This document shows positions 23,545-56,112 of a stretch of 64,000 bases of DNA, in pieces. The stretch covers positions 1,117,794 through 1,181,793 of the forward strand of contig BCKZ01000005.1 of assembly GCA_001600815.1 (NCBI GenBank), given 5' to 3'. The notes under the pieces were generated by a model. It was given only the letters and a program-made list of their open reading frames with translations. It had not been told where the DNA came from and ran no database searches. The first letter of the stretch is position 1. Each line of letters opens with the position of its first letter. The stretch is from Alloascoidea hylecoeti. Its lineage: Eukaryota. The position numbers and the translations under genes are program-made.

Positions 23545-24115
23545 TGCTTACACAAAAATCTTGAGAATACAATAGATTTTGTTTTGTATCTTCCTTATGA
23601 AATATGAGATATAGTATTTTCAGATTTGCAACCGACGACCTTATTCATTTGTAGAGGAGTTTCTAAACCATGGGAACAAATAATTGAATAAAATTATGAT
23701 ATGGAGATCAAAGTTTCAAGATCAAAAATATTAGAAATATTATAATGAAGATTCAGACACTGATACATGGTATGAATTGCACAAAGAACGTAATCTCTTA
23801 GAATTAGATTAGACAAATGGTAAATATACACGGCATAAATTAAGTGGTCATTCTGCCTAAATATATCGTGTTAAATTTTATAAAAGCTAGATTATAATTG
23901 GTTCACCAGATCATACAATAAGAATTTGGGATCGTGAAATTTTTCAATGTTTAAGTGAACCGAATCTGGAGATTTTAAAACAATATTGAAATTTTAAGAG
24001 AAAATCAAGCAGCGATAGAACTATTTAAGTTAACAAAAGACCCCAATATCATATTTCATTTAGGTAGTTTTAGTTGTATGGATATTAATGATCAATAGCT
24101 GGTTTCTGGTTCATG
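23545..24115 (+). pseudogene. F-box/WD40 pseudogene, copy A (3'-truncated)
   Basis: DFVLYLPYEI*DIVFSDL..TLFICRGVSKPW (F-box), IWRSKFQDQKY, LSGHS, IIIGSPDHTIRIWD, DINDQ*LVSGS. Aligns at nucleotide level with 38380-38945 (-). Confidence 0.85.
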
Positions 24116-24974
24116 GGTGCAAGCATTTAGCTCAAAAGGTCCTTGAATGCGTGGCGGATAATTATTCATCAAACTTGCCGATTGTATACTACATCAGATC
24201 GACGACAATGTTCAGAAAGTGGTCGAAATTAATTGGAAATACTGTGCGGCACATCGACAATTTGACACCCTAGGTCCCTAACTCCGTCATAGTCTAATAG
24301 AACAATTACAAGCTCAGGAAGTTCAATTATAATTAAAACGTTTAATGTGCTGTCTTTTGTAGATCATAAATAAAAATCACACAATCATGGCTAGCACAGC
24401 GGGGATTATACTGTACATGTATACCGGTATCGCCTACATATAAGATAAATATATAATATAGAATTAATTCGAAAACAAACATACTAGTAAAGCTTGCAAC
24501 TATGATGAAGTTTAGAAAGATAAAAAACATATAATATAGCGATCATGATTCATGATCCAGATCAATGATTGTATTACAACAGCTTTATGTATGACTCTTG
24601 ATTGGATTTCTATCCAGATCTGTATTTAAATTTCTCCGACTTGGAAGGTTTCAATTAATATATCAAACCTGAATCATGAATAACTTCATAAAATATATCT
24701 TCCTGTAATAATTAATTATGGCTATTATGAGCTTATATGAAGACCCTATAATTTGTTCAATACAATTGAGTCAATGATATCATAACTATTAACGTATGTA
24801 AATCTCTAATCTTAGACGTCTAACACGATTATAATTGTTTGGGGTAAACAGAAATATTCTTTGATCTTCAGATTCTTCACTGTAATTATAGAGTCAAACA
24901 TCCTTAAACCCATACTATCATTTTTTCAGAAAACTCACTTCTTTATTTTATTAAGACACAAGTTATCAAAGAAA

Positions 24975-37762: not shown

Positions 37763-39000
37763 TCACCTTCTAAAATAAAAGCAGCCATTTTTTTTGGAAT
37801 CAGCTTCAATTGAAGAATAATAATTCAAATGTAAGATTCGACGATCTAAATTCCAAATCCTGAGAGTAAAATTATAATCAACAGAAATGATTTTATTATC
37901 AACTATAGATAATCCGAGTACTTCTTCAAAAAATCCTTCATCAGTTGGTATAGTATTTATTAATTTATTTGATTGTAAATCCCGAATTGTTATTCGACTG
38001 TAGTTAGTAACAAATAAGTATTGATCATTTATTGTCATGGCCCCTAGTTGATTATATTGAAATTGTTGGATCATTTGATGAGTTTTAATATTCCAGGATC
38101 TTACTATAGCTATAAATTCCCTACCATATATAATATCATTATGAATGCAAATATTGCACCAATATTTTCCTTTTAAACTGTACTGTAATTTAAAATGTTG
38201 TTGAATTTTTAAATTAACGAGACTTGGTTTCCAAACCCGTAAATATTAAGCATTACAACATACAATAAAATCATTGTATAAAGCGACACCATCTATGAAT
38301 GATTGAGAATCATTTTGTGACATTTTCAGACGTTCTATTGCTTTAAAATCAGGTAATTGCCAAATTATACAAAACCCATCCAACGAACCAGAAACCAAAT
38401 ATTTATCATTAATATCAATACTTTTAACACCATCCAAATGAAATTTGATATCGAACTTTTTTGTTAATTCCAATATTTCGATTATTGGTAGATTATCTCT
38501 TAAAATCTCAAGGTCTGGTACATCTAATTGTTTTAAAATCTCAAGATCTGGTTCACCTATAACTCTTAAACATTGAAAAGTTTCACTATCCCAAATTCTT
38601 GTTTGTACAATCTTCTGAACCAGTTAAAATCCAGTTTTTATAAAATTTAACACATTCTGTTTCGCCAGAATGACCACTTAATATACGCTGTGTAAATTTA
38701 CCAATTTTCCAATTTGATTCTAAAAGATAACGCTCTTTATATATTTCATATCATGAATCCGTTTCCGAATCATTATAGTATTTCCAATATTTTTGATCTT
38801 GAAACTTTGATCTCTATATATTATCATTTTCAAACTATTTTTTTCCATGATTTAGATACGCTTCTACAATTAAGTAAAGTTAGTAGTCGTAAGTCTGAGA
38901 AGATCATTTCAGATATTTCAATGGGGAGATAGGAGACAAAATTGAATGTGGAATGAATATTCTTAAGAACATCTTGAAATTGTTTAAATGGTTTGTCAAT
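37763..39000 (-). pseudogene. F-box/WD40 pseudogene, copy B (near full length)
   Basis: FVSYLPIEISEMIFSDL..TLLNCRSVSKSWKKI (F-box), LSGHSGETECVKFYKNWILTGSEDC/RIWD, DINDKYLVSGSLDGFCIIW, DNKIISVDYNFTLRIWNL; several stops and frameshifts, no introns evident. Confidence 0.88.
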
Positions 39001-39168: not shown

Positions 39169-39933
39169 TATGGTCGAATTATTTCATGGCGTGGCCGAAA
39201 ATTTTGTTTCAAAGTGTTGCCGAATAATTTGTGCATAATGAGTCTAATATTAAATGTGTCATTAAGCCGAATTATTAAGTTGAGCTGTGGGCGAATATAT
39301 AGTCATATGCGGGCGAATAATAGGCCAACGGTATTGAGCACACTGTAGACATGTAAACCCGGGATAAATATACCAAACTTACGGATTACATAGATTATAT
39401 AAATTGGATTGGAAGATCTTACATTTAGGAGTTTACTACTTTTTTAAGAAAGAAATCAGATTAGCAAGTATTTTATCTTCACAAGTGGATTTTTTGATCT
39501 TAACAAGTTATCGTTTGAACCGAAAAATAGACAAGTCGTGATAGTAGACAAGTTTCAGACAGTTCATCATTATAAGTTACAGATCATTGAGTTTTTGACT
39601 ATAGAGACATTCTTGTGAGAGTTTATGTTTTCTTTTTGATATTTGTTGTATCTTTTTATCTTTTATAACAACTTTTGCGTCATATATATTGTAACTAGAC
39701 ATTATTAATATTCATCTTAGCAAGAATGTTTGTAAATTTTAGATAATCCTCAGTCAAACCAATCTGCTATTTAGGTGATAACCGGATATAATTAGCTGGA
39801 AAATTAGTTTCAAATTCCTCAGATATAATGGATAAATTTAAACACAGTTGAGAAATTACCTCTTTATGTCGATTTCACTTCGTCATTTCGGCGACTTTAC
39901 TCAGTATATCTATAGATAATGCCATTCGCCATA
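39169..39933. repeat. Possible non-autonomous DNA element with GCCGAA/GGCGAAT subterminal motifs; contains a dispersed repeat (39375-39680)
   Basis: About six G(G/C/T)CGAA motifs at 39170-39320; inverse TTTCGGC/ATTCGCC at 39886-39930; ends TATGGTCGAAT / ATTCGCCATA. The interior matches 54531-54805 on the minus strand. Confidence 0.45.
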
Positions 39934-50435: not shown

Positions 50436-53388
50436 TATACCATATGTTTTAACATATCTCTTAAATATATTACCAATGTTCCATAGCTGCATTTCATAAT
50501 AAATTCATTCCATTTGTTCCATTTATTTCATTTGGTATCTTAATGTTTTGTACACAAATTTGTTTATAAACCTTCTATTCATATTAATATTAATATTAAA
50601 TCGCCTTTTTAAATCTTATACATAACATAAATAAATCATGAACATTTCTGTACTTTTCTTCTCTGTAATTGCAATTGCAATTTCATCTGAACTTCGAATT
50701 CTTTAACTATATACGGATATAAGCTATAATATATATATTTATAATAGCAGCAATTATTGTAGAGATAAAACAATCAAATTCCATTACAAATAAATGTATC
50801 TATTCCAACGGCAATGCATATGGAAAGCCATCTGCGGCTCCGTATTAAGTTCTTATAATTTATATGTCATTTCATAATATAAAATAACTATAATGTTATA
50901 ACTACATATATTATAATTAATATTACTACAATCCTAAGGTTTGATCTGTAATTAACATAAAAAAACTGCCAAATATAGAACCATATAATTATTAACACAA
51001 ATTAATATCAATTGCTACTTGTATCAATCACTTTATTTAATAGGAAACATAAACGTTAACGTTAATAGTTAAAGCCACGGGTTTATAATTTCTAAATATT
51101 TCAACAGTAAATCTATATTAGGTATATATATTTCAATAAATCATGAATATAATTCTTTGTAAAAGAATTGTGGGGAGTTTCTAATATTTAACGCCTTCAT
51201 AACTATATGGTATGTTATAAAATATATAATACAAATGAACGATGTTTCTTAATTTTTTTCTATAGTTAATAATAAGTTTCATATACCAGTGAAGTGAATT
51301 ATATAGCCATAACTATTAAAACTCTTTAAAGTGACTTTTACCGTTTTTGATTTATAATTAATTAATATTCTGACAGATAACAGACTTAAATAACTCATCA
51401 GGAGTTATCGATCATTTATAAATTTAAATCATCCATTGTACCGGTATATACATATCAGACTAAACTTGATGATTAATTTATTATCCTTTGCAATTGTAAC
51501 TCTAAGTTCAAATTTTAGAAAAACTTGAGTGCAAGATACTTCTAACTATAGCTAACTTACCTTAACACTTCTCTATATAATTAATAATATAATATCAATG
51601 ATCATGAAACTTATTTCAACAGCGTTTTAATTGAAGTCAAACTAATCTTAATATAATTAATTATACTATCATAGCGTACACATATACCATAGCTATTTTT
51701 CTTATAATTATGATTATTCCATCAATTACAAAAAAATCGATATAATACATGCATATATAAACGTGTATACGGTTAATCATAACGCTCTTGTCTTAAATTT
51801 ATTCAAACATAGGTATATTATTTAATTTGTAGCTATAGTTATAGGCTAGGCAACAACGAAATGTTGTATTTATAAAATGTATTTGCATTTGACCATATAG
51901 ATTGCAATGCATGTATAGCTTACACATATGTATAGTAATGACACAATATTAATATATTAATATCAGATGTATATCGCAGTATATAGTAAACTTTGCCAAA
52001 AAAAAACACCCGAATATATGTATTTCTATAGTCATCAAAGCCAAAATATATAAGTTTCACCAAATTTATATTATGCATGTATGGACGCCGTGTTTACCCT
52101 TTGTGGTAATTATTCTTATCCGTAAATTCTAAATGAACTTCTAGCCAAGTCTGCATATGCATTAATATTCAATTGAAATTTCTAGTAACTTACACTCATT
52201 TAAATGACTACTTATAGATCTATATGAAATTACAGTAGGATATATTATAGTTTATAGGTATGTGAGTGGAGTGTTGATGAAAAAGGTTATATGGGGTTAA
52301 ACGTGGCATTCATTGATCTAGGCTGTCATTATCATCTTTTGACAATGTGAAACCCCAATGATGACTGTAGTGTCCAAGGTTTATTATATGAAGGAAATCT
52401 ACGGATCCAGGATCTCTCTGATTAATTCAGTGTTATGTGTGAGCTTAATGATTTTGTGAAGATCTTTTGTTTTTGTAGAGTGTGGATAGGCTGATACATT
52501 TCACATCTGTTAACGTTTTAATACAGTGTCATAACCTCTTCATAACCGTTCTATGGGATTCGGACAAGTTGAAAGCATACCATAAAAAAATGGTAATCTC
52601 ATAAGTATTCCAAGCTTCTTTCATAACATTTATTTTGGAGAATATCCTCCATGTGAATCGCGAACTCTCTGAGACTAAATAGAATATCCAGGATGAATAG
52701 ATCACTTCAAAGTGTTCTCTCTGGTTTAGGCAGCCAAACCCACTTCGTGTAATTAGCCGCTGAGATGTCTCTAATGATATACGCGGAAAGTTTCGAGTTA
52801 ACTTTTATCCAGACTTTTTTTTGTAACTTATCATTATAAATTATCCTAAATTATACTAATATACAAGAGGATAAAATGAATCGAGGAAGATTGTTTTTTT
52901 TTCTTTTTTTTACCTAACCATTTTATTTGAATAGTTTTATATAATAACGGTTTAAATACCTGTACCGTAAAACCTAGTCTGAGATCATATCTAAAGTGAT
53001 CACCTACTTAATTTGAATTTCTGAATTCGTTTTTCCATATTCACCAATTTGATAATTAATGAGGACTCCATTATTAAATCAATAGAACTAAAGCGTCTAA
53101 GGACTCGTATTTGCCATATTACCTCCACACTAAGGCTTATGTGTTTTATAAACTGAAAATCTTCCAAGGATGGACAAATCAAATCATTCAAGCATAGATA
53201 TTTTCCAAGAATTAAATATTACAGTTCTGTTTCAGTACCGTTTTGTAAGCATAGGATAAATTTGTTTAATGTACCCACTGCCCGAGAATGAAGGGGCCAA
53301 TGATAACTGTACTGTCTGAGATTAAAACGATGTAAAAAATCCACGGACCAGGTTTATATAAATAAACGGAATTTTGAAAAAAGAAATC

Positions 53389-53460
53389 GGGCCGAGCTGG
53401 GAATTGAACCCAGGGCCACTCGCACCCAAAGCGAGTATCATACCACTAGACCACACGGCC
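53389..53460 (-). tRNA. tRNA-Pro(UGG), intronless
   Basis: GGCCGTGTGGTCTAGTGGTATGATACTCGCTTTGGGTGCGAGTGGCCCTGGGTTCAATTCCCAGCTCGGCCC; anticodon arm CTCGC-TT TGG GT-GCGAG; T-run terminator follows. Confidence 0.97.
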
Positions 53461-53519
53461 GAACTTTTTCCAATTAGAATTTGAGGTTATCTAGGATGAA
53501 TCTATGAAAGGTTAATAAG

Positions 53520-53834
53520 TAGAGCTAAGGAAAAATATTAGATTTGCAGGGACACCACCACAAATATTAAATGAGATTGATTGGGGGATTCTAAAATCTA
53601 AAAACTTGAAAAAGTAAATATATCTAAAAAAAAAATAAAAAAAATTACTTTTAAGGTGGTCTAGGTTCATAAGAAGAGAAGAAAGAAGAGTGTCAAGAAT
53701 ACACAAAAATAAGAAGAATAGAAAAAGAGGTTTTTATTTCACTATATATATAGTAGAGATTTCCTCAGAATTTACATAGTTTCTAGTTATATAATTTAAT
53801 TGGAAAATATATGAAAAGTTAAAAAAAAAAAAAA
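53520..53834 (+). mobile_element. Poly(A)-tailed repeat copy 1 (left arm of inverted repeat); probable 5'-truncated LINE 3' end
   Basis: Nearly identical to the reverse complement of 54859-55177; ends in A14. Confidence 0.7.
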
Positions 53835-54530
53835 GGAACACCCTGAAGAGACACGATGGATACATTTGCCCACCTTGGGATATGTTACTCACATGCTACA
53901 TCATAATAAAGAAGCAAAACAATTGTGGTAAAAATCTGATATTTGTAGTTTATGTTAACAAGGTAAAGACGACATATTTCAGAACCAATTTTATCCATTT
54001 TTGGAATTAGACAAATTACAGGGATATTTCTTTAATTTTCAAAAGCGTATTACATTATTCATCTTTTAAAGCATTCCTTAAAAATGAGATGCCCAAACTC
54101 TTTAAACTATCAATACTTAAAACAGTATTAATTGTACCCAGATCACTCTTTCTGCATACAATAGGCCTTGTAAAGTTATAAAAGGATGATTCAACTGTTT
54201 TTTAACTTTAAATTGTTTTTAACTTTACAGGTCAGTTAGAAATCCTATTCACGGGCGAAGCCTTACATTACAACAGTGTGGAGACTCAATCCTTCTGGAA
54301 AAATCCGGGACCCCGGGCAATACCCACTAAAAACTCCCAGATGCTTTCACCGTAAGCACTCTAGTGATGGCTTCTCAGCCAATATGACAAACGTTTAATA
54401 GTCTTTATATGGGTGTGCTAATTCCCAAACCTTTTGTCGCGCATCAGAATCGAACTTAGGTCGCTAGAACGATTAAGAGTTGTTACTAATCAGTATGCAC
54501 CACTTTGCATAGAGGGCATCGGCTTACTGG

Positions 54531-54805
54531 GCGTGAAAGTTTACTCTAAAGATAAAAGGAAACAAAACTACCAAAAGAAAACTCAGACTGCCACACAATT
54601 ATGTCTTGGTAGTCGAAAACTCAATAATCAATAATATAACCAAAAATGATGAACTGTCTGAAACTTGTCACGACTTATCACTTTTTCAGTTCAATCAATA
54701 ACCTGTTAATATCAAAGAATCCACTCTTGAAGATCAAAAACTCGAACTAGCTAAAAATATAAACTACTACTTCAAACTATATAATCTATGTAATCCGTAA
54801 GTTTT
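54531..54805 (-). repeat. Dispersed repeat, homologous to 39375-39680
   Basis: Shared blocks AAACTTACGGATTACATAGATTATATA, AAGTCGTGA, GACAAGTTTCAGACAGTTCATCATT, ATTGAGTTTT in the same order. Confidence 0.85.
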
Positions 54806-54858
54806 GTAGATTTCTTCTGGAATTGTGTTTCCCACACGTCATTACCTGTTGCGCCAAA

Positions 54859-55440
54859 TTTTTTATTTTTTAACTTTTCATATATTTTCCAATTAAATTA
54901 TATAACTAGAAACTATGTAAATTCTGAGGAAATCTCTACTATATATATAGTGAAATAAAAACCTCTTTTTCTATTCTTCTTATTTTTGTGTATTCTTGAC
55001 ACTCTTCTTTCTTCTCTTCTTATGAACCTAGACCACCTTAAAAGTAATTATTTTTTTTAATTTTTTTTTTATTAGATATTTTTTACTTTTTCAAGTTTTT
55101 AGATATTAGAATCCCCCAATCAATCTCATTTAATATTTGTGGTGTCCCTGCAAATCTAATATTTTTTCTTAGCTCTAGTGCCTTTTTGATAAAAGCCCCA
55201 TTTTTCTATATTGTTTTCTTTTGTATTTATGATCAATAATTTGATCCCAATTCTTTCTCTCCCTGACATCATCTTCTTTAGTATTTTTATTGTTGAGCAA
55301 TCTTCAAATAGATGTAATTGTTCAATAAATGATGAAGTTGTCCCACCTATAGAAATAATATATAATCAATTTAAAAGATTAATAATTGATACAGTCGCAA
55401 TCAGCTAATCATAGGAATATGCATTTTTAAAAGTCAGGGA
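54859..55440 (-). mobile_element. Poly(A)-tailed repeat copy 2 (right arm 54859-55177 plus 5' extension); probable L1/Zorro-like 3' fragment
   Basis: Minus strand reads ...EQLHLFEDC (55297-55314; HLF..C of the L1 ORF2 zinc knuckle), then LRKNIRF, then UTR and A-rich tail. The 5' boundary is approximate. Confidence 0.6.
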
Positions 55441-55488
55441 ATCAAGTAGCGATTCATCAATTGAAGACTACAAACCGACAGTCTCTTA

Positions 55489-55550
55489 AATTACGAGCAC
55501 AACAAGAATTCACTTTAATTACGAGCACAACAAGAATTCACTTTAATTAC
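55489..55550 (+). repeat. 28-bp perfect tandem duplication in the RPS31 3' region
   Basis: AATTACGAGCACAACAAGAATTCACTTT x2 + AATTAC. Confidence 0.92.

Positions 55551-55626: not shown

Positions 55627-56112
<486 letters not shown>

Follow-up and report, generated by a model that had tools for sequence, protein, structure and literature searches.

In Table 1 of PMC5911963, non-LTR elements that target tRNA genes are listed only in dictyostelids, with the yeasts represented only by LTR elements, and PMC5006619 calls targeting by the TREs unique to dictyostelids and leaves its origin open. TRE5 of Dictyostelium is described as inserting 44-54 bp from tRNA genes, with the TRE5-A ORF1 protein contacting TBP, Brf1 and Bdp1 and a need for the B box, and TRE3 elements as lying downstream of tRNA genes and co-oriented with them (PMC5911963). 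At 5S genes, TRE5-A is reported to insert at a shorter distance than it does at tRNA genes (PMC5391098). Among the yeast LINEs, Zorro3 is said to target poly(A) tracts and Zorro1/2 to be subtelomeric (PMC7175516), and target site duplications (TSDs) are described as absent or hard to see for Zorro3 and Ylli (PMC3956500, PMC5014426); the excerpts on Ylli in the literature searched mention no tRNA preference. In the literature searched, which did not extend to most subscription journals or Repbase, we found no fungal LINE described as tRNA-targeting, and a prior description is possible.

Here we describe a repeat family, family A, that is very probably an L1-clade LINE of an early-branching budding yeast, position-targeted about 60 bp upstream of tRNA genes. 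It shares orientation-specific insertion upstream of tRNA genes with TRE5-A/B/C of D. discoideum and NLTR-B of Polysphondylium pallidum, but differs from TRE5 in its fungal host, in its distance (about 60 rather than 44-54 bp), in an RT that falls outside the dictyostelid group and in that no intact copy was found. With Zorro3 of Candida albicans and Ylli of Yarrowia lipolytica it has in common the L1 clade (in the RT tree, by way of C. albicans and Metschnikowia proteins) and many 5'-truncated, A-tailed copies. The yeast LTR elements Ty1/Ty3, Tyl3/Tyl6 and Tca8 beta use Pol III genes as landing sites, as family A does, but they are integrase-based, whereas family A combines an L1 RT with A-tailed, 5'-truncated copies.

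LINE fragments around the tRNA-Pro gene of the window

The window, by which we mean the whole 64-kb stretch of DNA that was analysed, has a single tRNA gene according to both ARAGORN and Rfam, and the pieces that concern us lie on either side of it:

52894..53349, minus strand: 3' end of family C, a different L1-like family, 5'-truncated and A-tailed, in the orientation of tRNA-Pro and starting 39 bp downstream, a TRE3-like position
53389..53460, minus strand: tRNA-Pro(TGG), the target gene (ARAGORN and Rfam RF00005, 59 bits)
53520..53834, plus strand: family A copy 1, with the last ~15 ORF2 codons, a ~250-nt 3' UTR and a 14-A tail, head-to-head with tRNA-Pro
53833..53981, plus strand: older family A piece with ORF2 sequence as far as the zinc-finger Cys pair, directly behind the copy 1 tail
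54211..54527, strand not given: unclassified dispersed repeat
54548..54813, strand not given: second unclassified dispersed repeat, 71% like window 39366-39663, with multi-copy depth
54859..55317, minus strand: family A copy 2, with the ORF2 end, 3' UTR and A tail

An alignment of the two arms, 53520-53833(+) and 55177-54859(-), has 95.0% identity across 322 columns (E 7e-142), or 97.2% if only substitutions are counted, and both arms are terminated by A tracts that point inward, as the initial annotation had observed; its estimate of 60 bp between copy 1 and the 5' end of tRNA-Pro agrees with the 59 bases that we measure. It had also carried the longer copy 5' into a decayed frame, and LINE homology is indeed present there, but it ends at 55317 and not at 55440, and the motifs HLFEDC and LRKNIRF fall in different frames. 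Only one tRNA-linked copy had been recognised; the linkage of copy 1 stands, but the older family A piece at 53833-53981 and the family C tail at 53349-52894 had been overlooked. The family C piece is a repeat with relatives behind other tRNA genes, one of which, on C10, carries RT pieces and matches to L1 ORF2 C-termini, and the window piece itself matches P0037 (500-536) weakly (E 0.003). The dispersed repeat at 54211..54527 occurs at 16 other places, 15 of them with a tRNA gene within 1.5 kb and usually within 1 kb, among loci that were themselves enriched for tRNA genes. The 39366-39663 copy of the second repeat has no tRNA gene nearby.

When aligned to a longer family A copy on C3, copy 1 covers positions 825-1131, the older piece positions 539-688 and copy 2 positions 683-1131, resuming where the older piece ends. 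We think it likely that tRNA-Pro was hit twice upstream by family A and once downstream by family C, and that the inverted repeat is probably the product of a subsequent inversion, which turned round the 3' half of the older of the two upstream copies. An earlier, stacked insertion at the site of copy 1 would probably have left the older piece as its 5' half and copy 2 as its 3' half, the latter probably flipped by an inversion of about 1.3 kb (53982-55317). Inversion of one older insertion is the simplest reading, and it would explain both why the older piece has no tail and why copy 2 has no tRNA gene: in the 5' flank of copy 2 we found no tRNA, no 5S-like sequence and no B box (best Rfam E 4-5). 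Copy 2 is probably not an independent insertion; none of 52 other family A 5' ends lies within 6 nt of its start point, and five lie within 100 nt. The left junction of the proposed inversion, which is the right junction of the older piece, is bridged by contigs of all four DNA runs examined. Counting against the inversion, the mean identity to 12 other copies is 90.5% for the older piece, with a baseline of 94.2%, and copy 2 is at its baseline (95.5% vs 95.4%), so that the older piece is the more diverged of the two; subfamily markers are not diagnostic. Twin-priming inversion was rejected for this pair because the two halves are separated by some 880 bp of other DNA. It should be noted that we do not take as evidence either that no joint across the copy 1 site appeared among the 15 of 25 joints listed for the contigs of the four runs, or that contig cover is absent at 55336-55449 in three of these runs.

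Elsewhere in the window, 55393-55469(-) is arranged like a box C/D snoRNA, with a terminal stem, a C box and a D box; its Rfam match (E 5) does not reach significance. At 55489-55550, downstream of a ubiquitin-fusion ORF at 55627-56079, a 28-nt unit is repeated in tandem about 2.5 times. A further pair of inverted repeats, 23554-24117 and 38380-38964, lies 14 kb apart and shows 75% identity over 560 bp.

Identity and genomic placement of family A

The 301-nt arm has at least 47 matches in the genome (best 40 of 124 candidates scored), and a 19-mer from the family A 3' UTR has 54 exact hits against none for the reversed control. Across these 54 hits the 3' end is fixed and carries A tails and the 5' ends are scattered, with aligned lengths of 71-1121 nt. 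The longest copy, of 1.94 kb, has three stops within its RT stretch, and longer copies contain a 262-aa open C-terminal ORF2 stretch with a Cys/His finger; this stretch matches the full-length L1-like proteins P0034 (E 1.6e-7) and P0036 (E 1.1e-5). The RT scores 39.9 bits with Pfam RVT_1 (cut-off 29.6) and has human L1 ORF2p as its best solved match (E 2e-13; R2, E 6e-5), which, together with its grouping with yeast L1s in the tree described below, supports at the level of sequence homology the assignment of family A to the L1 clade of non-LTR retrotransposons that the initial annotation had proposed. Of the APE-RT-CCHC ORF2 that it had proposed to look for in the longest copy, the RT is present; the finger has the Cys-x2-Cys and His-x4-Cys motifs but falls under the zf-RVT cut-off (E 0.028), and no family A copy extends far enough to include an APE or ORF1.

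No intact, endonuclease-bearing or ORF1-bearing family A copy was found in an RT family search (at least 59 matches), a DNA search with the RT part (at least five) or a search with a full-length L1 protein (at least 31), and the sole endonuclease-region match among those listed for the last query belongs to family B; the targeting protein is thus unseen. These searches scored the best candidates only and do not prove that full-length family A is absent. Thirty family A copies average 94.4% identity, with nearest neighbours at 93.2-99.0% and no identical pair. These figures are those of a past burst, all copies seen are dead, and the description of the family as 'recently active' goes further than they support. 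The host genome is AT-rich and 24.8 Mb in size, and for one protein of the window the best named relatives come from Trichomonascus and Sugiyamaella (57-58%), consistent with placement of the host as an early-branching budding yeast.

Among the first 30 family A loci, 27 had a head-to-head tRNA gene within 1.5 kb on the 5' side of the element (tRNA introns allowed). For an element-centred count, the 54 exact 19-mer hits, picked by LINE sequence alone, were treated as 52 same-strand arrays, each measured from its tRNA-proximal member. Thirty-nine of the 52 begin within 110 bp upstream of a head-to-head tRNA gene, with a median of 61 bp and 33 of them at 50-76 bp; eight more are 218-366 bp from a tRNA gene, and five have no tRNA gene on the 5' side within the flanking DNA examined. 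Chance would place 0.06 of 52 arrays within 110 bp, even with a generous 500 tRNA genes. In a wider set of 82 arrays, which includes loci chosen for reasons other than family A, 54 are within 110 bp of a tRNA gene (quartiles 54-66 bp).

The tRNA-centred census used 60 tRNA genes with both flanks available, picked regardless of LINEs from the best-scoring 63 of an Rfam search, which are not all the genes. Family A lies within 110 bp upstream and in opposite orientation at 27 of the 60, and at none of them in each of the other three positions (Fisher p 3e-10); within 1 kb, it is upstream and opposite at 37. For comparison with these 27/60 sampled genes, 61% of Dictyostelium tRNA genes are reported to carry some TRE (PMC5006619). 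As a control, twenty 10-kb stretches (200 kb) were taken at round coordinates; they contained a single tRNA gene and a single family A-like hit. This hit is itself head-to-head with a decayed 5S gene and lies 111 bp upstream of it; the decayed gene has an Rfam E of 0.36 and aligns to the 5S of this genome with a score of 123.5, the shuffle maximum being 44.5. Orientation-specific placement of family A about 60 bp upstream of tRNA genes (median 59.5-61 bp across these counts) is well supported genome-wide, in the one genome tested; the counts support the targeting of Pol III genes and show the peak at 50-100 bp upstream that had been predicted.

The 54 near arrays lie at tRNA genes of 26 anticodon types. 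Information in their 5' flanks does not exceed 0.07 bit at any of 20 positions, the composition of these flanks is that of the background, and the distance to the tRNA gene is independent of array length (rho -0.07, n=54). Moreover, family A cuts a ~385-bp LTR-like repeat near either of its ends, about 57-75 bp from the tRNA gene. Since there is no site consensus, 26 anticodon types are used and other repeats are cut through at the same distance, it is position that decides. Sequence-specific L1/Tx1 elements have a conserved target sequence, and Dewa is a Tx1-clade element of tRNA arrays. Targeting of the sequence-specific L1/Tx1 type was ruled out for family A by the low information content per flank position, and poly(A) targeting of the Zorro3 type by the background composition of the 5' flanks of the 54 arrays.

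The initial annotation had seen no TSD, and long TSDs are indeed absent from all 54 family A hits. A short-repeat signal is weak, with a mean of 2.05 nt vs 1.69 nt in shuffled sequence (p 0.026, 40 copies), and is not significant at 4 nt or more; 14 of the 54 hits were dropped from this scoring for unscorable tails, and one junction (C3:1051117) was mis-set. Where family A cuts the LTR-like repeat at C8:802440 there is a 5-bp overlap, and at C1:1610097 about 57 bp of target DNA have been lost. Family A TSDs are short or absent.

Same-strand stacks of family A are common, with the newest copy at the tRNA-proximal 5' junction or inside an older copy. Other Pol III genes and repeats of the genome are:

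C20:145400-150980 (L050) and C4:1336450-1340630 (L057): Ty3/gypsy-like insertions that carry long RT frames, immediately upstream of tRNA-Ile and tRNA-Pro
L030:310-720 and some 25 further places, e.g. C17:140934-141310: ~385-bp solo-LTR-like repeat, upstream of tRNA genes at 9-19 bp in either orientation, a Ty3-like placement
C5:235267, C20:316871, C2:72885, C6:245108 and, with weaker matches, four more places: 5S rRNA genes, which are scattered over several contigs and in part decayed

Ty3-like elements, like the solo-LTR-like repeats, are also found 9-19 bp from tRNAs in this genome. In two distant family A cases a Ty3-like element lies between the LINE and the tRNA gene, the L050 and L057 insertions having pushed family A copies 4-5.6 kb away. 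As for the 5S genes, one of the eight matches is an intact gene with a family A tail starting 39 bp upstream, head-to-head, and the decayed control one fits as well; a 5S-linked copy at C15:378118 departs from the pattern, sharing the strand of the gene and having its tail beside it. Of the remaining matches, one has other LINE relics on both sides and four are without a LINE. A tRNA-less family A copy at C2:407241 has a weak 5S-like relic about 42 bp away (score 48.5, shuffle maximum 44.5). Separately, tRNA matches of 94-97 nt at C6:998733 and 999451 (L015), C10:615750, C4:1145903, C16:472936, C7:1092044 and C10:688162, which ARAGORN gave as Asn(att) or untyped, are probably intron-bearing tRNAs that were mis-called.

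Families B and C and the RT phylogeny

Family B, a second L1 family, has 35 matches, 25 of which were examined as loci. A co-oriented tRNA gene is found on the 5' side in all 26 of its arrays; among the 25 non-reference arrays, 20 start within 110 bp of the tRNA 3' end, three start at 211-420 bp, and two are near-full copies in which a broken ORF1-like and APE part fills the gap to the tRNA:

C7:733870-738389 (L060) and C5:472897-477100 (L067): near-full, broken family B copies with ORF1-like, APE and RT parts, right behind tRNA genes

In the census, family B is downstream and co-oriented at 10 of the 60 tRNA genes, and takes no other position within 110 bp. Family C has a co-oriented tRNA gene within 3 kb ahead in 20 of 21 arrays, from loci that were pre-enriched for tRNA genes and mostly behind other insertions. 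Families B and C are downstream, co-oriented users of tRNA genes, a placement that they have in common with TRE3-A-D (for family B, in the 20/25 arrays within 110 bp), but family B differs from TRE3 in an RT that belongs to the yeast L1 clade and in distances of mostly 23-97 bp vs 40-150 bp.

The C7 copy of family B has two short inserts within its ORF1-like part, which we take to resemble rRNA and which possibly reflect template switching. At C10:265762-268394 (L079), C26:114040 (L088) and C6:244556-245936 (L062) there are further diverged L1 relics, of at least one more family; they lie downstream of tRNA genes and flank a 5S gene on either side. A LINE-like RT at C38:101114-101920 (L052) is not of the L1 type, sits on a long branch and has no tRNA gene nearby. 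The small contigs C53, C63, C64, C65, C67, C72, C76, C80, C125 and C133 have many RT matches in which the interruptions are exclusively or mainly TGA, as would be expected for RTs of mitochondrial introns or plasmids.

In a careful RT tree of 30 rows, a hand-picked subset of 130-odd RT sequences, families A and B group with C. albicans and Metschnikowia L1 proteins and unnamed relatives (97/88), with three dictyostelid rows apart (100/98), and constraining family A to join the three dictyostelid rows is rejected (p-AU 0.00065). The two families are not sisters in this tree, the inner nodes of which are weak. A quick search with 56 rows from the same hand-picked pool returned the group at SH-aLRT 87. 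The dictyostelid and C. albicans rows are hypothetical proteins that we take to be TRE-like and Zorro, respectively. On this tree, the habit of family A would be convergent with that of the dictyostelid TREs and of independent origin, TRE5-like in placement and not of TRE descent. A metagenome scan with the family A RT gave 104 pattern hits, none of which was confirmed, and a scan with a yeast-L1 alignment kept 80 of 399 loci, none of the 80 with a tRNA gene and the eight inspected unlike yeast elements, a result that says nothing on other yeasts.

Mechanism, alternatives and significance

Our analysis suggests how such an arrangement could arise. Family A would be copied by target-primed reverse transcription from its poly(A) end, usually stopping early and leaving 5'-truncated tails. 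A protein of the element would contact the Pol III initiation complex (TFIIIB placed by TFIIIC), and the nick would fall just outside its upstream edge, as for TRE5-A. Repeated hits would build stacks with the newest copy nearest the tRNA gene, and later Ty3-like or LTR-like insertions nearer the gene would displace family A copies, as seen at several loci; families B and C would use a downstream cue, co-oriented. By analogy with TRE5-A, a tether to TFIIIB or the Pol III initiation complex appears to be the most likely guide, and it is the one to which we lean.

Such a tether might be dispensable if the nick simply fell where DNA is exposed, at the border of the zone that is bound by TFIIIB and free of nucleosomes, and all other insertions were removed by selection in a gene-dense genome. 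This passive targeting would fit the lack of a target consensus, a family A window (quartiles 54-66 bp) that is wider than the 44-54 bp of TRE5 (PMC5911963), and the gathering of several unrelated repeats at tRNA genes. However, polarity is strict, with 27 of 27 in one of four positions, and the sides are family-specific (A upstream; B downstream, 10/10). Open DNA alone would admit both orientations and families, so that an element-specific, asymmetric cue is needed, and we regard passive targeting as unlikely. The common stacks of family A could also be read as random insertion followed by selection, as co-duplication of blocks of tRNA gene plus LINE, or as insertion into the poly(A) tails of earlier copies, for which the clade relative Zorro3 with its poly(A) targets offers a precedent (PMC7175516). 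We hold these readings to be very improbable: the arrays involve 26 tRNA types, unrelated flanks and different truncation points, the 5' flanks are not A runs, the newest copy is not in the tail of the older one, the one hit in 200 kb of control DNA is itself beside a decayed 5S, and the census refutes these readings.

At the window locus itself, two near-identical, inverted arms about 1 kb apart resemble the terminal inverted repeats of a DNA transposon or MITE. The arms, however, are unequal in length and have A tails and L1 ORF2 sequence, no ORF of at least 100 aa lies between them, and genome-wide the copies are single or in same-strand stacks; the chance that they are terminal inverted repeats is close to nil. 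Inverted pairs around a transposase were an outcome that the initial annotation had named as a refutation of its reading; the abundance of genome matches to the arm and to the 19-mer, the latter with none for its reversed control, shows that the arms are not such a pair.

With position-targeting of family A as the very probable reading, what is new here is a budding yeast with both the upstream and the downstream tRNA habit in L1 families of fungal stock, accompanied by genome-wide statistics. It would represent an independent origin of position-specific LINE insertion, in a second kingdom; it supports the safe-harbour idea for compact genomes, and it points to a lineage where an intact element could meet the best-studied Pol III machinery. 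More speculatively, Pol III-gene targeting may be a widespread, overlooked and switchable trait of fungal L1s, with lineages of one yeast L1 clade docking at tRNA and 5S genes either upstream, on the TFIIIB side, or downstream, on the TFIIIC/terminator side, and independently repeating the TRE5/TRE3 split of the social amoebae. If this tentative idea is true, intact relatives in other yeasts would let the LINE targeting module be dissected by yeast Pol III genetics.
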